A stretch of 64,000 nucleotides of DNA from an uncultured virus (IMG/VR IMGVR_UViG_3300026549_002379) (taxonomy: Duplodnaviria; Heunggongvirae; Uroviricota; Caudoviricetes), in IMG/VR virus record IMGVR_UViG_3300026549_002379; one strand, given 5' to 3'. Positions 19,995-39,135 of this stretch are shown here, one piece after another. The notes below the pieces were generated by a model. The model saw only the letters and a program-made list of their open reading frames with translations, searched no databases and had not been told where the DNA came from. Each line of letters opens with the position of its first letter. The stretch's first letter is position 1. Position numbers and translations under genes: made by a program.

Positions 19995-22900
19995 TTAGTC
20001 CACAAGGCCCTCACCGGACTGCTTGGACATCTCCTTGGCCTTGCGCTCGATGTCCGAGACGTCAATGCCATCACGCGTCTTCTGCTGGCGCTTGTGTCCG
20101 TCCTCGAGCGTGTCGCTCTTCGTAAACGCACGCATCGTGCGTCCCTCGGCACGCTCGTCGCCGGCTGCACGCTGCTCTGCCAGACGCTCGTTCGCACGCA
20201 TCTTGTTCGGCATGAACTCATGGTCGCAACGACCCTCGAAGAGGTCCATGCCCTTGCCATCGTTCGCATCGGCGATGTCGCAAAGCGTCTGGAAGTTACC
20301 ACCATAGGCCATACGGTCCAGAGGAGCCACCAGGTCCTTGCGTACGCTCTCATCCTCGATGTTGCGCATCACGCCGTTATCGTCTGCCATCACATCGGCA
20401 ACCTGCTTCAGCCACTTCTCGTTGATGGACACGTTCAAGCCATTGTCCGCCGTGGAGCTAGTGTACATGTCCCTGAAGGACTTGACCCACTCATCCCTCG
20501 TCGCAAGGGACGGCTTTCCGTCACCATCCCTGGCAACCTGCCACTGATTCTTCTCGTCACGACGAACCAGATATCCACGCCACAGGTTGCGTACCGGCGA
20601 CTGAAGCAGCCGATACTTCACCTCTGCCTCCTCGGCACTGTGCTTGACCTGCAGGAGCGATTGCGTAACAGGACGCGTCAGCTCCAGAACCGCCGTCGGA
20701 CACTCATTACGAAGCGCCGACATCGCTCTCTGCGAATAGCCGCCACCGATGCCCGTACCGAACGACTTCGTAGCCGTTGCGTACATGACATCCTCCTGGT
20801 CCTGACGCGTCGCAAGCGTATGGCCGGTGTCGCGAATCTTCGAGTAATCTATTGCGTCCGCGCCCTTGTCATCAATGGCAAGTCCTGCCCACTTTGCATA
20901 GGTGCGAACCTTGTTGTAGTTACCCTTTGCCCCGGTCTCGACGCAGGCCTCGACCACTGACTGGATGTGCTCCTGCACGCCATCGAAGCGAATGTACGAG
21001 GTTCCGCACTTGCCACTGAACGCCTTGTGATACGCGTCATTCAGCCGCTGCACATAGCCTTCCTTGATATCATCGTCCAGGTCAGCCCATGCAGGCACCG
21101 CATCGTCGCGCTGGGCATTGTTCAAATCACCGATAATGCCCTCGAACTCGCTCTTCAGCGACGGGTCATTGTGCTCGGCAACCTTGACGTCCAGCGACTC
21201 CTGGAGACCAAGCTCCATGTTGCCATGCTCGTCTGCCGCACCGTAGTCCAGCAGATTCTCCTTGATGGAGAACAGGTGCTCCGCCTCTGCCTTCGCACGA
21301 GGGTCATGCAGATTGACAACGGCAACGGTATCGCCATCGAAGTCGCCATCGAACGGCTTGTCAACCGCAGGATTGATGGACACGCCGGTAAGCGAGTCAT
21401 CAATCTTCACGCGCATATAACGAACGCCGGAGTCACGCAGAACAGGGTCACGCCAAATCAGCGCCTTGTCGCCGTCCTTCAGACCGATGGTGTCAGCCAT
21501 CACGCGACCGATGGCAATCTCGTCGATATCCAGACGCGGGTCCTCAGACCAGATGGACGTAGCCGAGTTCGGCATGCGGTGTCCCATGATGTCGTCACGG
21601 AAGATGTTATGCTTTCCCTCGAACTGACGGGAAGCCACGCCATCCATAATCACGTCGTACTGAGACTGGGCGTCGCTCTGGCACTCCGCCATCTTAGCCT
21701 CGTCACCGTGCGCCTGTGCATCACGGTAATTGCAGGCATCCATGAAGATGCGCTCGTACTGATGCGTCCAGTCATGCGTCGTGGACGTACCGTCCTCGAA
21801 CGTCTGACCGCTGCGCAGATAAGAGCTCATGACAGGAAGACCCCAGGTCACCTTGTCATCGTTCACGCGCTGCGTGCTCGCGTCCGTATGACGATGCACG
21901 GTCGTAGGACGGACATAGGTGCCATCCTTTCTTGTATAGCCCTTGCGCGTCCACTCCTCTGCCTTGTAGACAACGTCCGTATGACCGTCGTTCAGCGGAG
22001 GCAGCGGGTCACCCGTCTTGTACTTCAGCTCGAACGGCAGCTCCATGATGCCGCCCTCGAACATGACCTTGTCATGATACTGGCGGGTCATCTCCCTGGT
22101 ATCCAGTGTCATGCCTGACTTCGTCTCATGATAGACCAGCTCGGGCATCTCGAAGACCTTGCGCTTCTCGCCCTCATGAGGCTCGTATCCGCGATGGATG
22201 CGGCCGGTTTCGTCGATGTCCAGACCACACGTAATCAAATACTCCCTGAGGTTCGTGACAGGCGCGGAGTTCGAACCGTAGCACTCGCGCATGATGGAAT
22301 CGGCACCCTTAGAGTTAAGTGCCCACGCCAGCTGGGCGGACGCCTTACGACCACGGCCCTCGGCCAGCTCCTCATCATCATAGATATGCGTCTTCGTATC
22401 CGCCGACTTATCGGTGATAATCATGTTCAGCTCGCCAAGGGCACCCTTCAGCGTCTCGCCATCAGGCGACTTCAGGTCACTGACCTCGCCATCCATAATC
22501 TCGCGCATTGCTCCTGCGTTGAAACGCGAAGGCGCAGAGAACGGAGCCATGACGACATCCATGTCAGGGTTGGCCTTGAACCATGCCCATTGCTCGTAGA
22601 TGCCCTCCTTGCGGGCTTCCTCCTCGGACATGTCAGGGTCAACGACCAAGGACACGACGCCCTTGTTGCCATGCATGTCGGAAATCTTGTCGCCCTTGAC
22701 GAGACCGCGCAGCTGGCCGCTGCGGTTCCGCATCTTGTTCGCCTCGGCGAAACGCTTGGACACGACCATGCCGTCGTCCATGTTCCATCCGCCGAAATCC
22801 ATCAGCGCAACCTTCGTCTTCTTCGTAATCGAAGAGGCCTGTGTGATATTCGAGAACGCCATGTTCTGACGGTCGAACGGGTCATAGGACGCATACTGCA

Positions 22901-25661
22901 TTATCGGATGCGCCATGATGGCACACCTCGCGTTCTTGTCAGCCGACGGATGAATGAAGCCATTCTCGTCCACATGCGTGCCTTCCACCAGATACCGCAG
23001 GGTGCCCTGGTTCGTCGTCGTCGCCGTGGAGGCTATCGGGTCGAAGTATCCATCGCTCGCCTCGTTCATGACGGCCATGTTGCGACCGCCGGTCAGTGCC
23101 GGAGCATCCGTACCGTTCGTATTGGCAACATCCAGAAGACCACGCTCCATCTGATACTGCATGTACAGTGTGGAGCCGTCGCGAATGTCGTTCGAATAGC
23201 GAACACGCTGAGACTCCGTCTTCACAATCGCGTCAATCATGTCCTGGGACATGCCCTGCTCGCGATACTGCTGCTCGAAATCAAGGTCATGCCTTGCGTC
23301 ATACAGACCGCGATACGCGCCATTAAGAGACGTCGGAACGCCAAGCGCATCGCCGCCCTTGCGATACCAGGAAATGTCAGTACGAACCTGATAGGCAATG
23401 GCCTCGCGCATCGTCTGCTCATAGCCACGAAGTCTCGTGCGCTCTTCGACGGACTTGTGCTCGCCAGGCTTCTGCGGCATGATGTTCGCCTCATAGCCGG
23501 GAACGAAGGCATAGTTATCGGACGCGTTGTAACCAGTCGCAACAACGCCGCGGGCGTCAGGCTCGAAAATCTGGCCAAGCTCGCCTTCGACATGCTCCGT
23601 CTGGGCACTGCTCTGCGTCGGCGTCAGCTCGCCCGACCAGCGCACGATGCCATGGCCGTCAATGCGAATGCCGGCATCAGGCCCGTCGAACATAACGCCG
23701 TTCTGCTCCAGACTCGTGCGAATCGCACCGTACATGCTCTGCATGAACGGCGACGTCTTCGTGCTCATATCCACAGAACCGGGGAAGTCGAACTTCACGA
23801 GCTTGTCGCGCACCTGGTCGCAATAGAAGTTGTCTCCACGCACATCGTCCTTGTCCATGCCAAGGATGCGCATGGCCTTCACGATATCGTCCGTGTTCCG
23901 ATACTGGTTGAAACCGTTCGTGTTGTACTGTGCCACGCCGACAGGATTGAAACGCGTGCCATCCGGCCCCTTCTCATAGGTGCCGATGTTGGCCTCCACG
24001 CAATCCGCCGCATGGGCACGGATGATTTCCGCAGGAGTCATCCCTGCGCTGTCGTACATCTTGGACTGCAGGTTCACCTGCGTCAGCCCCGCGTCGACCA
24101 CGTTCTCCGTCTCGTACTCGCCTGCCTCGGAGAGCTCCGTCAGGAACTCCTCCTCGTCGACGCCAGGACGAAGCAGCGTCGTCCGACGACCTTCCAGAAG
24201 GTCGATATAGGACGACTGAATTGCCGCGATGTTCGGGTCGCCAGAGAAAGTCGGAGCCCAACCATCCTCGGTATGATGAGCCTCCCAGTCTGCCACCAAT
24301 GCATCGGCACCAAGCGCCTCGGCATATGCCCGACGGGCGGACGTCACGGCACCGCGCAGATACTCGTCAGCCGCCTCCGGCGTCAACATCGACGTCGTGG
24401 CCGAATTGCCGTTCTTTCTGAGCATCGTCACGGCATAGTTGCCATCCTTCTTGTACATCGCCGAATAGCCTGCTCCATGATAGACGGAATTTGCTGCCAC
24501 CCGGCGGCCCTTGCCGTTGATGATGGTCTCGCGACCTGCCTCTCCGACATAGCCCCTGCCATCACCACGCGGCACCTGCTCGCCAAGAGCGAACCTCACG
24601 AGCTGCAGAGACTCCTCAGCCGTTGGAACATAGGTCTTAGCACGTCTGCTGGTAGCCGACTCACGCTCCGTCGTACTGAACGTGTACTGAGCACCGCCAT
24701 TGCGGTCGTATGCCTTGCCGATGAAGGCCTCGGAACCCTCTTTCTCAGTGACACGCACCTCGACGCGCGTACCGTCAATGCACGCCTTAATCTGGCCGGG
24801 GAACGTGTCCCTCTGGATTTTATAGGTACGGCCCTCGTCACGAAGACCCGCCAGAATATGAACACTGCGGTCCATTGCCTCACGGCGAGCTCGGACAGCC
24901 TGTGCCGAACGCGCACCAGTGTTCATGCCCTCGTTCGCCCACTGACGAACGTTGTTGTACTCGGCCTCCGTCATGTAAGGACGCAGCCGGACGACGCCGC
25001 TGATATCGTCCTCGGACATCATCATCTTGCCCGTCGGATTCACGATGATATTGCCACTCGCCGTGTCACGGACGCTGGAAATCTGCACGGTCTCGCCCGT
25101 TGCCGGGTCCATCGCCTGCTGCAGGGAATCGGCATCCTCTCCGCGAATGCCGCCCATCTGCGACCCGAGGTCCAGCACTGACGCACGGTCGGCGATACGA
25201 GGGTCATACGGCGAAATCGGATAAAAATTCCCCTGCTTGATTTCCAGGGCCCCATCCCGGTTCATCGCCTGATGAACCCATGCAACGGAATCCTTGACCA
25301 CTTTCGAAGAGCCGAAGACCCGATTCCGCTCAACAGGGCCATCTGCCTTGAAGATGTCATATCCCGGAATCTGAATACGGTTCTGCAACACCGACTTTAC
25401 CGCGCTGCATGCGGAACCAAGCGTCGCGTCGTCAAAACCATGCCTGAAGCCCTTGTCATAATTCTTGTTCTTGGCAGGGTCGTTCTGCCATGCCAGAAGC
25501 CGACGCTCGACCTCACGACGAAGCGCCCGTGCCTCTGTCGTGGTGATAAGGTCGGGCGCCTGCTTGTTGACCTCCTGCTCCATGGCATTGTAATCATGCA
25601 CAATCTGCCAGAACATGCGCTCGTACACCGCACGCGTGCAATCCTGTTTGGTAATCTTCAT
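19995..25661 (-). CDS. Single-polypeptide two-barrel (double-psi beta-barrel) RNA polymerase, beta+beta'-like
   Basis: In order: DRQNMAFSNITQA, GGWNMDDGMVVS, GDKISDMHGNKGVVS, PDMDVVMAPFSAPSRFNAG (beta-like), then WRDPVLR and NPAVDKPFDGDFDGDTVAV (beta'-like DxDGD). Confidence 0.9.
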   Translation of the reverse strand: MKITKQDCTRAVYERMFWQIVHDYNAMEQEVNKQAPDLITTTEARALRREVERRLLAWQNDPAKNKNYDKGFRHGFDDATLGSACSAVKSVLQNRIQIPGYDIFKADGPVERNRVFGSSKVVKDSVAWVHQAMNRDGALEIKQGNFYPISPYDPRIADRASVLDLGSQMGGIRGEDADSLQQAMDPATGETVQISSVRDTASGNIIVNPTGKMMMSEDDISGVVRLRPYMTEAEYNNVRQWANEGMNTGARSAQAVRARREAMDRSVHILAGLRDEGRTYKIQRDTFPGQIKACIDGTRVEVRVTEKEGSEAFIGKAYDRNGGAQYTFSTTERESATSRRAKTYVPTAEESLQLVRFALGEQVPRGDGRGYVGEAGRETIINGKGRRVAANSVYHGAGYSAMYKKDGNYAVTMLRKNGNSATTSMLTPEAADEYLRGAVTSARRAYAEALGADALVADWEAHHTEDGWAPTFSGDPNIAAIQSSYIDLLEGRRTTLLRPGVDEEEFLTELSEAGEYETENVVDAGLTQVNLQSKMYDSAGMTPAEIIRAHAADCVEANIGTYEKGPDGTRFNPVGVAQYNTNGFNQYRNTDDIVKAMRILGMDKDDVRGDNFYCDQVRDKLVKFDFPGSVDMSTKTSPFMQSMYGAIRTSLEQNGVMFDGPDAGIRIDGHGIVRWSGELTPTQSSAQTEHVEGELGQIFEPDARGVVATGYNASDNYAFVPGYEANIMPQKPGEHKSVEERTRLRGYEQTMREAIAYQVRTDISWYRKGGDALGVPTSLNGAYRGLYDARHDLDFEQQYREQGMSQDMIDAIVKTESQRVRYSNDIRDGSTLYMQYQMERGLLDVANTNGTDAPALTGGRNMAVMNEASDGYFDPIASTATTTNQGTLRYLVEGTHVDENGFIHPSADKNARCAIMAHPIMQYASYDPFDRQNMAFSNITQASSITKKTKVALMDFGGWNMDDGMVVSKRFAEANKMRNRSGQLRGLVKGDKISDMHGNKGVVSLVVDPDMSEEEARKEGIYEQWAWFKANPDMDVVMAPFSAPSRFNAGAMREIMDGEVSDLKSPDGETLKGALGELNMIITDKSADTKTHIYDDEELAEGRGRKASAQLAWALNSKGADSIMRECYGSNSAPVTNLREYLITCGLDIDETGRIHRGYEPHEGEKRKVFEMPELVYHETKSGMTLDTREMTRQYHDKVMFEGGIMELPFELKYKTGDPLPPLNDGHTDVVYKAEEWTRKGYTRKDGTYVRPTTVHRHTDASTQRVNDDKVTWGLPVMSSYLRSGQTFEDGTSTTHDWTHQYERIFMDACNYRDAQAHGDEAKMAECQSDAQSQYDVIMDGVASRQFEGKHNIFRDDIMGHRMPNSATSIWSEDPRLDIDEIAIGRVMADTIGLKDGDKALIWRDPVLRDSGVRYMRVKIDDSLTGVSINPAVDKPFDGDFDGDTVAVVNLHDPRAKAEAEHLFSIKENLLDYGAADEHGNMELGLQESLDVKVAEHNDPSLKSEFEGIIGDLNNAQRDDAVPAWADLDDDIKEGYVQRLNDAYHKAFSGKCGTSYIRFDGVQEHIQSVVEACVETGAKGNYNKVRTYAKWAGLAIDDKGADAIDYSKIRDTGHTLATRQDQEDVMYATATKSFGTGIGGGYSQRAMSALRNECPTAVLELTRPVTQSLLQVKHSAEEAEVKYRLLQSPVRNLWRGYLVRRDEKNQWQVARDGDGKPSLATRDEWVKSFRDMYTSSTADNGLNVSINEKWLKQVADVMADDNGVMRNIEDESVRKDLVAPLDRMAYGGNFQTLCDIADANDGKGMDLFEGRCDHEFMPNKMRANERLAEQRAAGDERAEGRTMRAFTKSDTLEDGHKRQQKTRDGIDVSDIERKAKEMSKQSGEGLVD

Positions 25662-26176: not shown

Positions 26177-27332
26177 TCATCCCATCAACTGCCTTGCCAT
26201 AATGTCATCAAAGCGCCCGTTCGCGAACTTACGCCAGTTCTGCTGCCCGACAAGGAACCGCAGGAACTCGTCAGTCACCTTGAAGGTTCCGAACTGTTCG
26301 CCGACATTCTCATCCTCAGAGTACACACGGCTTCCCTGCTCATGCGCGGCCTCGTTCAGCTTCTGCAGCTCCGCAGAGGACGTCGCACACACGATGTACG
26401 GCTCATTATTCAGACCATACAGAGAGCCATCCCTCGTAGTAAAGAACTGATGGTCCTGCCACATGTCGCCCTTGCACTCCTGGTAGGCCTTGATGATTTC
26501 ACCATCCAGACTGTGGTTCGGATTGCCGTCGATACTGACAAAGTCCTCCTTCGCACACATGCCATGGGCATAGCGACGTTCCGACCAATCCCTCTGCTTT
26601 CCGGCCGTCTCCTGCGTAGCCTTCATCTGCTCCTCATTGTCTTCGGCCTGCTCGAAGAACGAATCGTCGTCGCGCTGACCCTCCAGGTACTGGCTGACGT
26701 CCTCGATATCATCGACACCGCCGGCGTCTTCCTGCATGGACGCATTGATGACTTCCATGATTTCGGCCGCATACAGGTCAGGGTCAAGCTGCTCGACCTG
26801 ATACTCCGTATAATCATAGATGCTCATATAAGCCTCACGAGCATCCTCTGCGGCCAGAGCCTGCTTCATACGCTTGTCAAGCATCTTGCCGAAGTCAGGC
26901 TGGTTCTTACGCACATCGAACTCCTTTGCCGAAGACAGCGTAGGAATCGTCTGGAACGTGTAGTCATGCCCAGGCTGCTTGATATCGTGCGCACGCAGAC
27001 GCCAGGACATCGGCAGGATGGTCTCGTTACGGTTCCAGATAGGCGAGTCGCCCGCACGGAACACGATGGAGTTACGCGGCGAAATGAACGCCATGTCATT
27101 GTACGAGATGACAGGCACCTCCTGTGCCGTCATCGTGTACGACGTCTTGCCCTCGTTACCGGACAGGTTCTGGAACACGGCCTCCGTGTCTCTCGTAATC
27201 GTCTTGGAGTTCGTGAACACCTTGTGCGTCGTACCAGACATCTTCTGCAGGGTATCCAGCATCGAGTCATCCGTCGACTTCAGGAAGACGATATTGCTTG
27301 TATTTCCTTGGACGACCTTATCCACGGAGTCT
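26177..27332 (-). CDS. virD4: VirD4/TraG coupling protein, exon 2
   Basis: DSVDKVVQGNTSNIVFLKSTDDSMLDTLQKMSG continues the TraG-D C-terminal motif that exon 1 leaves at QTLQQLRDVYG. Confidence 0.88.
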
Positions 27333-27999
27333 CAATGTCTCGAAAACCGAATAGAGAATCATTGAACTGTGTTTTGATGTCATCCTCGCTACGATTATTG
27401 CGACAATCCAATTCAATGAGCCGAATATGACGTTTTTCCGCATATTCTCGTTTCATACGGTCATGCTCCTGTTGGATTCGAAAATATGCCTCTCCGCCAA
27501 AGACGTCAACAGGACGATAATGCTGTTCTCCTTGACACTCAATCAAGACCCGAGTGCCGTCCTTTAATCGAACATCAAAATCGTAAGACAACAGCCCTCC
27601 GCCCGTTCCGATAAGACTCGGAAACGAACGCTGTGCCGTATAATTCAATCCGGCCTCGGCAAGCCACTCCGAAACCCTCAATTCATATTTTGAAGGTCCT
27701 TTACCACGAGCCATACTTTCAACACGAGCGCATCCGCAAGACATCGTATGACCGTTTCTAAGACTCGTTCCTCGAACAAGTACCGTTCGACCACAATCGC
27801 ATTTGCATATCCATCTGATATAACGAGTGCCTTTTTTCGTGATTTCATCATCGCCACGCGACACGACTGTCAGACTTCCGAATCGACGCCCAATCATATC
27901 TGGGATACGCAACTGTTTCTTTCGACAACCGCATGATTTCGTATGACCGTTCACCAAAGATGAACCGCGCGTGACAAATTCTTTACCGCAATCTGTCAA
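27280..27999 (-). CDS. Intron-encoded putative homing endonuclease (Cys-rich repeats + Vsr/DUF559-like nuclease domain)
   Basis: Two CG...GHTxSCGC repeats, then YDFDVRL...LIECQGEQHY...QEHDRMKREYA; lower GC than flanks; TTG start. Confidence 0.75.
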   Translation of the reverse strand: MTDCGKEFVTRGSSLVNGHTKSCGCRKKQLRIPDMIGRRFGSLTVVSRGDDEITKKGTRYIRWICKCDCGRTVLVRGTSLRNGHTMSCGCARVESMARGKGPSKYELRVSEWLAEAGLNYTAQRSFPSLIGTGGGLLSYDFDVRLKDGTRVLIECQGEQHYRPVDVFGGEAYFRIQQEHDRMKREYAEKRHIRLIELDCRNNRSEDDIKTQFNDSLFGFRDIETPWIRSSKEIQAISSS

Positions 28000-28459
28000 T
28001 AATTCTCTATTCGGTTTTCAAAGAACAGTTTCACATGTTCGCAACACATGCTCCGTGTTATATCACGGCACCCCCGTTACAGGGCGTGGACTGACTATAT
28101 GTCAACCCCGCACCGCTTTCGCGGCCGCTGAGCCACCTATTTTTCGCCGACCGCATATGCTTCGGTCGCTACAGGGACGTCATCCCTTAGTCGATGAGCG
28201 TTACCCGGCTCTTACGCTACGGGCATTCGCAACCAAACAGACCCTTGTCATCGCCGACGAGGAACCCAAACGTGATGTCAGGGCTTTTATTGCATCCTGT
28301 ACGGCATCCTCGAACTTCTTTCTGCTTTCGCTCCTTCGCGCTTGTCGTTTCCAACTACGCTGTGGCATCGAGGCTCTTGAGGCCCGTGTCAAGGTTTTAA
28401 CTGGTGTAATGATACGCACACATTACATGTACGCAGAGACTCGTCTATTTGACATCACT
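27333..28459 (-). mobile_element. Group I intron (IA-like) interrupting virD4
   Basis: P7 GACUA (28192-28188)/UAGUC (28097-28093), P4 CCUUG/CAAGG, P3 CACC/GGUG, two hairpins between P7 and P3', P8, terminal G at 27333; removal restores the reading frame YG-DSVDK. Confidence 0.85.
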
Positions 28460-31323
28460 CCATACACATCGCGCAATTGCTGCAGAGTCTGCAGAATCAA
28501 TGTGAACTGCTGCTCCTGGCCAAGGCCGATGGAAAGCATCGTCTCGAAGCCACTGATGCCATGCCCCTCAGACTGCAGGTTGCCCAACTCGTCGAGCATG
28601 AACCTCGTCTTGTACAAAGGCTTCTGGTTGCCCTTCGTCATGTACGACTGGTCGAAGTTCAGGTCGACCAGCTGCTTGATGAGAATCAGAATCAGCTTCG
28701 CGTACTTCATCAGATGAGGCGGCGTGACCAGGAACACGACCTTCGGCTTCTCGGAGTACCGGAGCATGAACTGCGTAATCGCATGTGCCCGCACGGTCTC
28801 CTTATGAGCGTTGGCCGAGATGTCCTTCATCTTGACCGTCTTGAACGTCACATGGCCCTTCTTGTAGACGACCTTGCCGTCCTTGCTCTTCACAGGACGA
28901 AGCTCCGTCATAATGCCGTCGCGCACAATCTTCTCGCCGAGGACAGGGTCCTTGACATAGGCGCGGCCATCAAGCGTGGTCGCATAGGACTTCTGGAACC
29001 TGAAATAGAACGTACGCACCAGCTGGCTTGTCTGAGGATTGCGAATCTCGCACTTCAGATAGGCTACATCCGTCGGGAAGATTCCCTTGAAATAGAACCT
29101 CGCCCAACCAGCACGGTTAATCAGGTCCTCATGATAGAAGTCCTTGCCCATAGGCTTCGTGAATCCCCTGTCCTCATATGCCTGCCACACGCACTGCATA
29201 CCGGTCAGGTGATAGCGCTTGATGAAATCGGCGCTCATGCGGAAGCCGAGACGACGCGGGAACGACAGACCCGCCAAGTCCACGTTCTGACTCGGCGTGC
29301 CACTGGTCAAAGTGGAAATCGTCGGGTCGGTGAAGAAGGACATGGCCGTAATGGCAATTCCGTAGACGGAAGCCATCATCTTCTCAGCGCCGGCCATAGA
29401 ACGCAGAGCATTGTTCGCATTGCTCACGAGCGTACGCATCTGGTTCTTAGGCAAGGCATCCGTCGCATTGAAGTACAGGGTCAGCAGGTCAATCTCCGGC
29501 TTGTCCTCCCAGAGCTTCGACTGTGCCGTCGCCTCCTGGAGCTTCGCCTCGTACTCATCGTCCGAGAGCGAATCGAACTCATGATTCTTGGCCTTCTTCG
29601 TGAACTCCAGGGCGGGGTTCTTCAGCTTCTTGGACGTCAACTGAACGAACAGCTGATAGCAGTTATACAGCGTGACATGTCCCCACATCGCGTCGAGCTT
29701 CGTCTCCAGCGTCTTCGGGTCCATGTGCGTCCGCTCCGCCATATTACGAAGCTCGGCCTCTTCCTCAAGGTAGTAGTCGATGAGACCGTAGGCAGCACGC
29801 TTGAACGCATTGTTTGCGGCATTCGGCCACACAGGGTCGTCGCCGCCATCCAGCGGGAAGAACACGTCCGCGATATTCTCGACGTACATTGCCACCTTCG
29901 TGAAGTCGCCCTCACGCGCCGACTGCGCCGCCATCATCAACGGATTGTAAATATCCGTGTTCATGGCGTTAATCAGATTGAACTGCACGACCTGGAAATC
30001 ACGATACGTCGCGGCAACATAGAACTTCTGCAGAAGCTCGCCCTTAGGGTCGTTGATAACGATGTTGTTCGGCCTGCGCTCGCGAAGCCACATGTCAATC
30101 GTCGGCTCGATGACCGTCTGGCCCTTACCTGCACGAGTGATAGCCAGGACCATCGTGTTGACCGGGTCGATGTCCACGAGATAGGCGCCGGCAGGACGCT
30201 GCGTCTCGTACTCCGGAATCACCCAGTCGCCGTTAATCATGTCAGCCACCGTGTCATAGCCCTTCAGCTTGTCACGGTTGGCGTTCTTCGGATTGTAGGG
30301 AATCTTCGTCGGGTCGTAATATTTACGAAGCGTCTTGTCCTTCGGAAGCCCGGAAGCCTCGAACAGGGACTCCATGAAATCCTTGTCGAACATCGGCTTC
30401 GTCTCCATCAGGGCATTGCCGTCATCATCCCGAAGGATTTCGCCCTTCAGGTACTCGATGTCGCCGTCCTCGTCAAGGATGTCCTTGTCCGCACGCCTTG
30501 ACACCTGTACAGGGTTGATGCCCTTGTTCAGAAGAGCCACATGCGAAATCATGCTGGACGGCTGGACGCTCGAATGGGCACCCGCATCAGGGAACCAGTC
30601 GAACTTCCGCATGACCTCCTCAGGCAGGGCGATATGCTGGTCGTTATGGTACTGGTTGATGTCTGACGTGTCGTTCATCATGTTCTGTGCAGCCAGGTTA
30701 CGCATCATCTTCGTATATACGATAAGAAAGACGATGAGCCACGTAATCAGCGACAAAAGGAACTTCACCAGACGGAACGTCCCGAACTCCTTCCAGAACG
30801 CAGCAAGACCGCCATTGTCCTGCTTCGACGAACTTCCGGACGCGTTCTTTGCATTCTGCATGTCAACATACCACTGCGGTTTGGGAACCTGGTCTATACT
30901 GCCCCACGTTTCTGAAGACAACGTATGCTTATCAGGGTCAGTTATCTGATAGCAATACACCATTCCTCCCCTGGTCGTTTGAATCGTATAGTCGTTCGGC
31001 TGCGAAATCGTATTCACATCCGTAAGGCCATACTCCTGCTTCAGCTCATCGGTCTGGCTGCTCACAACGACTCCGGTGCTCCCCATCGTTCCCGTATCGC
31101 TCTGAAACGCGCCGATTGCCAGGGCACCCGCTGACGCGAGAAGCCACATCACCAGCGCCGCGAACAGTGCAACCACAACGGAGAAGATGATACGCCACGT
31201 CGGCGTCTGCTTCTCCTGAATGGTCGAACGTTCCAGCTGCTGGTCTTCGTACACGTCACGATACTGCATCGTGTCGGCATTGCTCTGCTTGCTGAGCCTC
31301 TGCCAATTTGTCTTCTTGGCCAT
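28460..31323 (-). CDS. virD4: VirD4/TraG coupling protein, exon 1 (spliced product about 1339 aa)
   Basis: Two N-terminal TM helices, Walker A-like AITRAGKG, NDPKGEL, Walker B FMLDELGNL, LILQTLQQL. Confidence 0.92.
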
Positions 31324-36937: not shown

Positions 36938-39052
36938 TCAGCTTCCGAACGCCGCGGACTGTACGGTAGCCTGAACGGCCAGCTTCATGTCCCGCTCGAA
37001 GTCATCGCCAAGGCTCGTCGTATGAACGACCTTCGCATGACCGCCGGAGCCCGTCTTGGCAGATGGAAGCACGGCCTGCCCGGACTGGAACCTGTCGGCC
37101 ATGTCCTTCATGACCTGTACGTCCTTCTCAGGCATGTTTCTTACGAAATCGCCCTGCCCCGTGTCTTCCAGGTACGCACGCGCGGCTTCGAAGACCTCGT
37201 GGCGTCTGTTCGCCACACGGACGAAGGCATCGACGTTAGGCTTGCTCACAGGTGCGTCGAACGGGAAGTCGTAGCCCAGATGATGCAGGTCCAGAGCCTT
37301 CACGTCATCGAAGTCGTACGCGGGCTGATGCCTAACGCGTGCACCGTTTTCGTCCGATTCGAACGTCATGCCCAAATCGGCCAGATGCAGCTTGAAATCG
37401 TCGACCTTGCGGTCATACGTCGCAAGCATTCTGTCAAGCCTCTGCTCCAACACCTGCGGAGCCGTCACGGCAAAACGTCCGCCACGCTGACCATAGACAC
37501 GCATACCATAATCTTCCGCAGAATCAGGACTGCGACGCCGCATGCTCCTGTCCGTTATCATCGCGTCCATGTTCACAATCGAATCGCGATACTTCATGAG
37601 GTCGTCGAACTCGCCCTCATATTCCTCGTCCGGCGGCAAAAACGCCAGGAAATGCTGGTATTTCGCCATCAGCATCGCATTGTACTCCTCCTCGAACTTG
37701 TAGAAATCGTACAGCGGTTTCGAGTCCTCGGATGCCTCACCGGCTTCCTCGGCCTCCTCATAATGCACGCGCGCATCATGATAGCGCTTGTGCTCCTTCT
37801 TATGGTAATCGAGACGCGACGAGTACGAACGCAAACGGAACCCGAACTCCAGCATCGGGTCCGTCATGGCATCCTCGGCCATATCCGTGTATTCCATGCT
37901 CATGATATCGAGCATCGGCGTCGTCGTCCGCATCCGCGACTCCGGCACGTCCTTCAGAATCGAGTACACGCCATTCATGCAGTCCGTGACCAGACGCTCG
38001 CGGCCGTTCGCCACAAGCTCACGATACTCGCGACCCGTCAAATCCTCCCTCATCTGCCGCGAACGTGCGTACTCACCAATCTCACGCATGGCCTTGTCAT
38101 AGCCCGAGTCAGGCTGGGCAAGCACCTGCTCCACGAACTCGCGCGTGATGGCATTCGCCTTCCGCATCTCCTTGCGGTTCGTGTTCGCACGCCACAGACG
38201 CCTATCATCCGGCAGACACGCCATCAGAAGCTGCGGCGTACCGTTCTGCGCCATGACCTGATGCGTGTACTTCTTGATGAAGCAACGGGCATTCCGCCTG
38301 TCATAGGCCACGCTTGATGCCAGCATCTTCACAGGTTGCATCTCGTCCAGCTGCATGTCGATGCCACGCCGAAGCATACGCTTGTCATCCTCGTCAAGCT
38401 TCCCCCTCTGCGTGCCATCAGGCATCACACGGCCACGGCCCTTGTCCACCATGCAAAGGTGACAGTGCACATGCATGGTATCCACCTGGATGACGCCGAC
38501 CCATTCCAGGTCGTCGAAGCGCCTTGACATGCGGTCCATGCCATGCATGATGGCCAGTCGCAGCTTCATCTGGTCGATGTTGCCACGATAGTCACCACGC
38601 CTCCTGGGCTCAAAATCCTCATCCACAATGCCGGTCCGCTTCAGGTACGGCAGGTCGAAGGACACGACGGTCTTCAGTACCGTCTTGCCGGACTCGAACT
38701 GCTTCTGGATGTCCTTCGACACGGCCTTGACCTTGCGATGGCTCATCGAGATGTCACCCATGTCACCATCACCCGTCGACCCGAAGGCGACACCGCCAAA
38801 CCCCTGCGCATCGCGCATGCCCTGCTTGATGCGTCCGACGGAATCGTACCTCTCCGTGGCCTCACGCCGCGCCATGTACCGCGTCACATAGGCATCATTA
38901 TCATCATATCGAACGGGCGTCAGGTCCTCTGTCGCACCGTTTCTCGCCATATATCGTATGACATAGTCTCCCGGCGTGTTCCCGCGGGAACCGCCGTCCA
39001 CCGTCGGAACGGAAAACTCGTTCACGACGACAATGTCCTGCTTCAAACCCAT
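36938..39052 (-). CDS. HUH relaxase (MobP2/MobL-like)
   Basis: N-terminal YVIRYMAR and YVTRYMAR tyrosine motifs, TVVSFD, WVGVIQVDTMHVHCHL HUH motif. Confidence 0.85.
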   Translation of the reverse strand: MGLKQDIVVVNEFSVPTVDGGSRGNTPGDYVIRYMARNGATEDLTPVRYDDNDAYVTRYMARREATERYDSVGRIKQGMRDAQGFGGVAFGSTGDGDMGDISMSHRKVKAVSKDIQKQFESGKTVLKTVVSFDLPYLKRTGIVDEDFEPRRRGDYRGNIDQMKLRLAIMHGMDRMSRRFDDLEWVGVIQVDTMHVHCHLCMVDKGRGRVMPDGTQRGKLDEDDKRMLRRGIDMQLDEMQPVKMLASSVAYDRRNARCFIKKYTHQVMAQNGTPQLLMACLPDDRRLWRANTNRKEMRKANAITREFVEQVLAQPDSGYDKAMREIGEYARSRQMREDLTGREYRELVANGRERLVTDCMNGVYSILKDVPESRMRTTTPMLDIMSMEYTDMAEDAMTDPMLEFGFRLRSYSSRLDYHKKEHKRYHDARVHYEEAEEAGEASEDSKPLYDFYKFEEEYNAMLMAKYQHFLAFLPPDEEYEGEFDDLMKYRDSIVNMDAMITDRSMRRRSPDSAEDYGMRVYGQRGGRFAVTAPQVLEQRLDRMLATYDRKVDDFKLHLADLGMTFESDENGARVRHQPAYDFDDVKALDLHHLGYDFPFDAPVSKPNVDAFVRVANRRHEVFEAARAYLEDTGQGDFVRNMPEKDVQVMKDMADRFQSGQAVLPSAKTGSGGHAKVVHTTSLGDDFERDMKLAVQATVQSAAFGS

Positions 39053-39135
39053 TCCATCACCTCCGTACACGAAAAAGGGCGACGGCCGGCTCTACATGCC
39101 AGACCGCCGCCCAGGCCCTCACGCAGGTCGTGACG

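Follow-up and report, generated by a model that had tools for sequence, protein, structure and literature searches.

The gene for a VirD4/TraG-type coupling protein (T4CP) on a 64,000-nucleotide (nt) stretch of DNA recorded as an uncultured virus (IMG/VR IMGVR_UViG_3300026549_002379; this whole stretch is called the window here) is interrupted by a 1127-nt insert. The insert is very probably a mobile group I-type intron with a subgroup IA architecture, in which the ribozyme core lies at the 5′ end and an endonuclease open reading frame (ORF) lies near the 3′ end. It is a divergent group I-type intron, one that works like a group I intron, rather than a standard member; it is so labelled because two tested properties are missing, a match to the Rfam group I model RF00028 and a U·G pair at the 5′ splice site. 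An initial annotation, made from the sequence alone, had proposed that a coupling-protein gene is split by a group I intron, and this proposal was upheld by the RNA junction, the core topology, the P7/J8-7 signature, the P1/P10 pairings and the presence of a homing-endonuclease ORF.

Removal of the insert from T4CP RNA

The first T4CP ORF (31323..28423, minus strand, 966 amino acids [aa]) matches T4SS-DNA_transf, TrwB_AAD_bind and TraG-D_C in Pfam/NCBIfam and ends in ...LQQLRDVYG followed by 11 unrelated read-through residues and a TAA stop codon at 28425-28423. The downstream T4CP frame resumes with ...DSVDKVVQGN at about 27331. Two intron-less homologs, P0004 (1379 aa) and P0007 (1370 aa), are continuous through this site (...LQQLRDVYGDSVDKIVQGN), homologs of this type being 77-79% identical over the region searched. 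A tblastn search placed residues 1-990 of P0004 on one side of the insert and residues 991-1377 on the other, and actinobacterial plasmid homologs span the site as two adjacent alignment pieces. The site lies inside three domain matches of P0004 (TraG-D_C, 942-1065; T4SS-DNA_transf, 892-1085; TrwB_AAD_bind, 883-1035), indicating that an unspliced gene would give a protein cut within the conserved motor region. It is, hence, reasonable to suppose that splicing is required for a coupling protein of full length; by arithmetic, joining the exons would give an ORF of 1339 aa.

T4CP (VirD4-like) exon 1: 28458..31323, minus strand; ORF with Pfam/NCBIfam matches, aligned with P0004 residues 1-990; edge 28458 is from the RNA joint, with up to +3 nt of ambiguity; the end in the preferred register is ...UAUGGAG (minus strand)
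Intron, 1127 nt: 27331..28457, minus strand; from the RNA contig joint and intron-less homologs; both ends possibly up to 3 nt higher
T4CP exon 2: 26177..27330, minus strand; starts ACUCCGUGGAUAAG; aligned with P0004 residues 991-1377 and delimited by the RNA joint
Circular (or tandem) core RNA, 426 nt: 28019..28444, minus strand; its junction joins 28018-28020 to 28443-28445

The public runs containing the stretch are bovine gut metagenomes. Four runs were compared over positions 26900-28900: DNA run X1 (the likely source), DNA run X13 and metatranscriptomes X3 and X4, which represent two samples from two studies, both other than the sample of X1. A single contig of X1 crossed the whole stretch with no joint. 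Contigs of both X3 and X4 joined 27330 to 28458, skipping exactly 1127 nt (3 letters ambiguous), with no mismatches to the window and with the exons joined in frame. This joint was detected in 2/2 RNA runs and 0/2 DNA runs; X13 contained a divergent DNA variant, with 56 differences over 716 nt, in which the insert was still present. The initial annotation had the virD4 frame stopping inside the insert and resuming 1127 nt on, a length confirmed independently by the RNA contigs of two runs, and had the joined exons keeping normal VirD4 spacing. Its boundaries of 27333..28459 fall within the ambiguity of the joint but are 2 nt off those preferred here. A 744-nt contig crossed the 3′ splice site unspliced, indicating that precursor RNA, or contaminating DNA, was also present.

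A second joint, which goes back 426 nt from 28443 to 28018 (2 ambiguous letters), was found in a 456-nt contig in both X3 and X4. The contigs with this joint were in two different rotations, and the joint was absent from DNA runs X1 and X13. Such a joint is the signature of a circular or tandem RNA built from the structured 5′ portion of the insert. In the middle register, the circle has its 3′ end at G28019, the nucleotide that opens a 24-bp stem; the 5′ junction follows G28445, 13 nt into the intron, and the AG preceding this junction can, as read from the sequence, pair with those guide nucleotides that also pair at the 5′ splice site. The 426-nt circle resembles the truncated circles that ribozymes make. 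Contig depths were 376 to 833 for the exons, 204 for the core and 32 for the ORF part in X3 and 99 to 149, 43 and 10, respectively, in X4; these values are compatible with efficient splicing and a stable core RNA, contig depth being a weak measure and the RNA and DNA samples being different ones.

Ribozyme core, splice sites and endonuclease

The secondary structure was derived from an alignment of 10 sequences, which favours that structure; P7 was added as a pseudoknot, and pairs were then counted. RNAalifold with the 10 copies gave 78 pairs, 54 of them with compensatory changes, and recovered P2-P6, P7.1, P7.2, P8 and P9. With the pseudoknot included, 95.5% of cells were paired in these 10 sequences (shuffled mean, 78.3%; slid partners, 34-45%), with compensatory changes at 54/83 pairs and a covariation score of 0.593 vs 0.240. 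For 44 distinct sequences, 95.3% of 3638 cells were paired, with a mean of 76.8% after shuffling, none of 500 shuffles reaching the observed value and slid partners pairing in 35-42% of cells; compensatory changes were present at 60 of the 83 pairs in 18 helices, and the covariation score was 0.566 vs 0.212. Both the slid and the shuffled controls stay far below the observed pairing.

The topology is that of a group I intron, with P4-P6 lying inside P3, with P3 and P7 interlocked as the P3/P7 pseudoknot and with P8 between P3′ and P7′. The helices comprise P2, P3, P4, P5 with a large three-branched extension, P6, P7, P7.1, P7.2, P8, P9 and two more hairpins.

Ribozyme core P1-P9.2 (first ∼440 nt of the insert): 28020..28457, minus strand; 83 pairs, 18 helices, 44 sequences
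Internal guide GAGU-CUC-UG: 28434..28442, minus strand; 9 contiguous nt that pair, by eye, with the ligated exons
P2 hairpin: 28413..28435, minus strand; stem of 9-10 bp, loop UAA/GUAAU, from RNAalifold
P3: 28406-28403 and 28137-28134, minus strand; CACC/GGUG, covarying at 4/4 pairs in the 44 sequences
P4: 28396-28393 and 28234-28231, minus strand; AACC/GGUU, supported by covariation
P7: 28192-28188 and 28097-28093, minus strand; GACUA/UAGUC, invariant in 44/44
P7.1: 28187-28173, minus strand; between P7 and P3′
P7.2: 28169-28146, minus strand; between P7 and P3′
P8: 28133-28105, minus strand
P9: 28084-28072, minus strand

Among the 44 sequences, P2 (helix 1) was paired in 99.7% of cells and had compensatory changes at 6/9 pairs. 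The P7.1/P7.2 region was tested as three helices: helix 14 was paired in 100% of cells (5/6 pairs compensatory), helix 15 in 88.7% (4/5 pairs compensatory) and helix 16, a single pair, in 65.1%. P7.1 and P7.2 are, as in subgroup IA, located between P7 and P3′. As P7 is invariant, covariation cannot be tested for this helix; the AUAUAG preceding it is likewise invariant in 44/44, and the letters of P7 and J8/7 agree by eye with the RF00028 consensus AGACUA ... AUAUAGUC. Most helices named in the initial annotation were retained, namely P3, with its covariation, P7, with its invariant strands, and the two extra hairpins between P7 and P3′, for which the covariation in P7.1 and P7.2 was found. 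Its P4 (CCUUG/CAAGG) was replaced, since CAAGG belongs to the 3′ strand of P5. Two other pairings were dropped in the course of the analysis: a first P1, exon AUGUGUAUG with CGUACAUGU, a strand of which belongs to the P2 hairpin that covaries in all relatives, and a first P2, UGUAAUG with CAUUACA, which is broken by the copy L024a.

The loops of P2 (28426-28422) and P9 (28080-28076) are the same pentaloop, GUAAU in most copies and GUAAC in P9 of the window, and a conserved AUUAC between P2 and P3 (28410-28406) is complementary to both. This complementarity suggests a tertiary or alternative pairing, its columns being nearly invariant and covariation uninformative.

Four registers are allowed by the RNA joint, with the intron at 28457..27331, 28458..27332, 28459..27333 or 28460..27334. 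The last exon nucleotide is then G28458, A28459, G28460 or G28461, respectively, which excludes U28462, and the last intron nucleotide is G27331, A27332, G27333 or U27334. Relatives favour the first register, in which exon 1 ends in ...UAUGGAG, the intron runs from UGAUG... to ...UUGAG and exon 2 begins with ACUCC; it is the guide pairing in these relatives that points to this register for the window. The guide was located by a direct hairpin search in 19 introns. In 18 of these, the triplet immediately 5′ of P2 is complementary to exon positions −1 to −3, the guide/exon triplets being of four types (CUC/GAG, CCC/GGG, CGC/GCG and GCC/GGC), and the exception is L123, with an A opposite C. Position −1 is a G paired with C in 17/19 introns, a C paired with G in one and an A opposite C in one. 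In the window, P1 is formed by CUC(UG) of the guide with (UG)GAG, the last 3-5 nt of exon 1, and P10 by GAGU with ACUC, the first 4 nt of exon 2; in L025a and L280 the pairing of guide and exon 2 extends to 7 bp and includes one compensatory change (by eye). These pairings show a P1/P10 guide of the group I kind and, in the preferred register, an exon nucleotide at the 5′ splice site that is a G in a Watson-Crick pair with a guide C, instead of a U·G wobble.

Splice-site nucleotides were further compared in 13 resolved intron/site cases, which were distinct and ORF-less; this set excludes introns with a homing endonuclease gene whose exon 2 lies beyond the locus, as well as cases that scored under the threshold. 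A G at −1 together with a terminal G of the intron (omega-G) was possible in 12/13 cases and a C at −1 with omega-G in 1/13, while a U at −1 with omega-G was possible in 0/13. A terminal G was possible in all 13, and in the window this would be G27331 in the preferred register or G27333.

Beyond the core, the insert contains an endonuclease ORF and a long stem.

Intron ORF, 239 aa, homing endonuclease: 27280..27999, minus strand; a pair of Cys-rich CxCDCG..SCGC modules plus a predicted nuclease domain of PD-(D/E)XK fold
24-bp stem, 5′ arm: 27996..28019, minus strand; inverted repeat, 96% complementary, containing the TTG start of the ORF
24-bp stem, 3′ arm: 27342..27365, minus strand; inverted repeat

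The 239-aa ORF matches PHROG families of homing/intron-encoded nucleases (E values of 1e-24 to 1e-7); no match was obtained in Pfam or NCBIfam, and a search of PDB sequences gave nothing beyond two chance hits to dehydrogenases. With residues 115-310 of the ORF in L107 it shares 43% identity, the ORFs of relatives at the same site being 324-330 aa long. Five residues of the C-terminal domain (D140, E154, H160, D180 and K183) are invariant in 13 homologs. An AF2 model of the ORF (pLDDT 82.6) retrieved TnsA, Hjc, Bax1 and Vsr with Foldseek at probabilities of 0.87-1.0 (0.97-1.0 for TnsA, Hjc and Vsr), all with E values of at least 2e-3, and Pfam PDDEXK_11 was matched at an E value of only 0.11 and on a relative. 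The ORF is predicted to encode a PD-(D/E)XK-fold nuclease, most similar to TnsA, Hjc, Bax1 and Vsr, the fold matches being weak by E value.

The 24-bp stem is the only inverted repeat of at least 12 nt in 27300-28480 and is present in both the minimum free energy and the centroid folds. It loops out a 630-nt ORF segment, leaves 11 nt between stem and 3′ splice site and puts that site 11 nt from the core. In relatives, stems of different sequence occupy the same position, and L210 keeps the stem without an ORF (by eye).

Under the proposed mechanism, splicing would proceed through the two guanosine-dependent transesterifications of group I ribozymes, with the terminal G27331 acting as omega-G. 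The circle would arise through attack by the 3′-terminal G at the base of the stem (G28019) on a position just after G28445, 13 nt into the intron. The predicted PD-(D/E)XK-fold endonuclease, or intact versions of it in relatives, may drive homing into intron-less T4CP alleles, an event that would occur when elements come together in the same cell. Splicing would be required for a functional T4CP of 1339 aa and, through it, for transfer of the element.

Related introns and the setting of the T4CP gene

Relatives were gathered by exon protein, intron ORF and conserved core motifs, and a five-copy profile (nhmmer) recognised further members. A first, stricter motif pattern found 5 loci, 3 of them chance matches in coding sequence. 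With a second pattern, the matches listed for genome contigs (at least 120 loci) were mostly chance matches, and the family members among them by nhmmer were L135, L210 and L242. In metagenome contigs the family was present in 67/74 pattern loci, with 104 core hits, and many loci had two or three intron copies within 1.5 kb. Named members include L024 and L025 (several copies each), L114, L116, L117, L123, L135, which is an ORF-less member of Evansella clarkii DSM 8720 located between LQQLR and DVYG, and L210, from a Muribaculaceae metagenome-assembled genome.

A T4CP match lay directly beside 52 of 65 near-complete cores. Most of the remaining 13 were flanked by further copies or by endonuclease ORFs belonging to the same gene region, and cores with no recognisable T4CP flank were those of L263, L266, L278 and L300. 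The insertion positions in T4CP (P0004 numbering) cluster at approximately 415 (Walker A), 933/934, 947, 949/950, 968-971, 985-987, 990/991 and 993, and the family occupies at least eight sites of T4CP genes. Of the 120 closest T4CP protein clusters, 81 are continuous at the window site, 15 are broken directly after DVYG, where related read-through peptides follow, and 20 break elsewhere in the preceding 40 residues, so that 35 in all are cut within a single stretch of 40 residues; a few have intein-like tails. The protein P0001 (952 aa) is 99% identical to the exon 1 protein of the window and is cut after ...GQEQQF, 20 codons upstream of the window site, indicating that close elements differ in the sites that are occupied.

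Several loci merit separate description. On one contig (L116:1000-1422 and L117:1000-1422), a single T4CP gene carries two identical copies of an ORF-less intron, between ...TR and AGKGQT in Walker A and between ...MLDE and LGN, each preceded by CGAG, which suggests recent intragenic spread. Group II domain 5/6 (RF00029) was detected in L024:1384-1486 and L025:1393-1477 (57.8 and 60.7 bits), ending just before a T4CP exon, in T4CP genes that also carry two or three of the group I-type introns. Intein-like sequences follow ...DKI(V/I)QGN in T4CP homologs (P0043, P0044 and P0096; L267:1284-1937). Inteins, group I-type introns and group II introns all target the T4CP gene. Further clean insertions of 364-396 nt are present at other T4CP sites (L023:3613-3987, L024:2120-2515 and L025:2146-2509), the last having a weak match (13.8 bits, E 0.075) to R1, a covariance model of the 3′ half-core of the family.

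Similarities to known introns were partial. The T4 nrdD/sunY intron with I-TevII is reportedly a phage IA2 group I intron with a 3′-located ORF; it resembles the T4CP intron in having the core at the 5′ end, P7.1/P7.2 between P7 and P3′ and an endonuclease ORF before a remote 3′ splice site that is returned to the core by long-range pairing. It differs in residing in a phage nucleotide-metabolism gene rather than a conjugation gene, and the T4CP intron has a predicted PD-(D/E)XK endonuclease with Cys-rich modules and a G-C rather than a U·G pair. The P5 extension shares 78% identity over 73 nt with intron 2 of the dnaE-like gene of Alicyclobacillus phage KKP_3916 (L001:2437-2820). That intron has, by eye, a similar P2 hairpin and the same GACUA...UAUAGUC letters of P7. 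In contrast to the T4CP intron, it is compact, has no ORF and no P7.1/P7.2, resides in a phage replication gene and shows, by eye and with the same junction method, the canonical U(−1)·G pair along with a terminal G. KKP_3916 contains two unannotated group I introns in all (L001:414-642 and L001:2437-2820), the first of which scored 41.7 bits with RF00028 (gathering score, 50); the second, delimited by eye, splits the dnaE-like gene, which is listed in the record as separate hypothetical proteins. The IepB gene of Staphylococcus phage Twort, annotated as intron encoded, has 76% DNA identity over 80 nt with the endonuclease gene, whereas the ribozyme parts of the Twort terminase introns had no detectable similarity (R1, no match in L002).

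The window (G+C, 56%) is part of a conjugative element. Apart from the T4CP gene, its large ORFs include a MobL relaxase (36938-39070, minus strand), a type IA topoisomerase, a ClpB-like AAA protein, a D5-type primase-helicase and a T-Q ester adhesin. A further ORF of 1888 aa (19995-25661, minus strand) has Pfam matches to RNA polymerase Rpb2 domain 6 and Rpb1 domain 2 and looks like a fused beta/beta′-like polymerase on a conjugative element.

Alternative explanations and significance

A number of observations weigh against a group I intron that is spliced in the manner proposed. RF00028 gave no match on the window at the gathering threshold, no match at an E value of ≤10 on 1601 nt or on the 471-nt core alone and no match at an E value of ≤1 in L023-L025, among them four relatives in L024 and L025; for comparison, the different intron in L001 scored 41.7 bits against a gathering score of 50. 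Model R1 did not match Twort or the two Alicyclobacillus phage introns, and its extra matches were weak (L036, 23.6 bits, besides that in L025:2317-2482, 13.8 bits, E 0.075); the T4CP intron is, hence, linked to known phage introns neither by RF00028 nor by the cross-search with the family model. A U·G pair marks the 5′ splice site of nearly all known group I introns, and no U is available at −1 in any of the four window registers. Three members of one sublineage at the window site, L114:226-1662 (minus strand), L210 (3′ end near 455) and L284, have no terminal G in any protein-compatible register, the last intron nucleotide being only A or C (...ACCA before A...). PMC11878797, in the portion available, does not deal with splice-site nucleotides. 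The RNA support consists of assembled contigs rather than reads and comes from samples other than that of the DNA run, and the near-identical element P0001 has a different insertion pattern; for these reasons, an intron-less DNA allele in the RNA samples is formally possible. Finally, the window endonuclease may be inactive, as the ORF lacks ∼113 N-terminal residues of its relatives, including one of three CxCDCG...SCGC modules, has its TTG start (27999-27997) buried in the 24-bp stem and extends past the 3′ splice site into exon 2, with no stop of its own before exon 2. The initial annotation had named the absence of a covariance-model match among the outcomes that would speak against it; this outcome was obtained with RF00028 and is outweighed by the spliced product. 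The same annotation had overlooked the missing U·G pair.

The missing U·G pair and the three relatives without a terminal G could also be accounted for if the group I-type core splices but depends on a protein, through maturase activity of the endonuclease or a host factor, and if a cellular RNA ligase, not the ribozyme, closes the circle once nucleases have cut the base of the stem. This explanation, which we consider possible but rather doubtful, is in line with the circle ending (3′) exactly where a 24-bp duplex, a plausible nuclease substrate, has its base. ORF-less members (L025a, L116/L117, L135 and others) occur at several sites with frames intact across the junction, suggesting that splicing occurs without an intron-encoded protein, and nuclease cuts at the stem base do not sit well with a 5′ junction that lies inside the intron after an AG able to pair with the guide, or with the likeness of the circle to truncated circles made by ribozymes.

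A second explanation is that the insert stays in the RNA and here splits or inactivates the T4CP gene, the joined contigs coming from a co-resident intron-less strain. It draws on the joined forms being known from contigs only, on the difference between the X3/X4 samples and the X1 sample, on the comparison having covered four runs and on the variable insertion content of near-identical elements, as with P0001. We regard it as improbable: the joined contigs have no difference to the window, while even the X13 variant, with its many differences, has the insert; the circular form of the core was found in both RNA runs and no DNA run; and neither the compensatory changes over 44 sequences nor the pairing of the guide with both exons, found at all sites examined, would be expected for a dead insertion. 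An intervening sequence of some other class (group II intron, intein or free-standing endonuclease gene splitting the protein into two separately translated halves) can be dismissed for practical purposes. Although the introns known from conjugation genes are of group II, group II domain 5/6 occurs in the same gene in L024/L025 and some T4CP homologs have intein-like tails, RF00029 has no match in the window, the intron ORF encodes a nuclease with no reverse-transcriptase ORF being present, stop codons are in frame, removal is at the RNA level and the structure has group I topology.

With the group I-type intron, therefore, as the favoured explanation, we are inclined, with considerable reserve, to go further and to see in the family a new ribozyme lineage, marked by G-C at the 5′ splice site, specialised on the T4CP motor domain and producing an abundant circular core RNA. 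Such a lineage would have a 3-bp P1 stacked directly on P2 and, in some members, an omega-G replaced by A; it would use its eight or more sites often with two or three introns per gene, alongside group II introns and inteins.

In the literature searched, no report was found of a group I intron in a T4CP gene or other conjugation gene; PMC1924603, which contains both terms, describes, in the part available, IStrons elsewhere in the genome. The intron family is apparently undescribed. Bacterial group I introns are found mainly in tRNA and rRNA genes and phage DNA-metabolism genes, and the introns of conjugation genes known to us are group II. An example of the latter is Ll.LtrB, which interrupts the relaxase gene of pRS01, a conjugative plasmid (PMC7293003). 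Reportedly, it is likewise located within an essential conjugation gene, transfer depends on its splicing and the intron travels with the element; it differs in being a group II intron with a reverse transcriptase and a lariat and in residing in a relaxase rather than a T4CP gene.

The ATPase that couples DNA processing to the secretion channel is a new home for a group I-type family. As the intron interrupts the gene for this ATPase, transfer of the element should depend on RNA splicing, which is a possible control point for conjugation. Since the standard Rfam model misses the family, annotation will call such T4CP genes split or broken. The G-C pair at the 5′ splice site would be a natural exception to the U·G rule, and one that is directly testable, as an ORF-less member is present in E. 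clarkii DSM 8720, a bacterium that is cultured and harmless. If these readings are true, conjugative elements host a phage-like ecology of homing introns and the rule for recognition of group I 5′ splice sites is less universal than thought.

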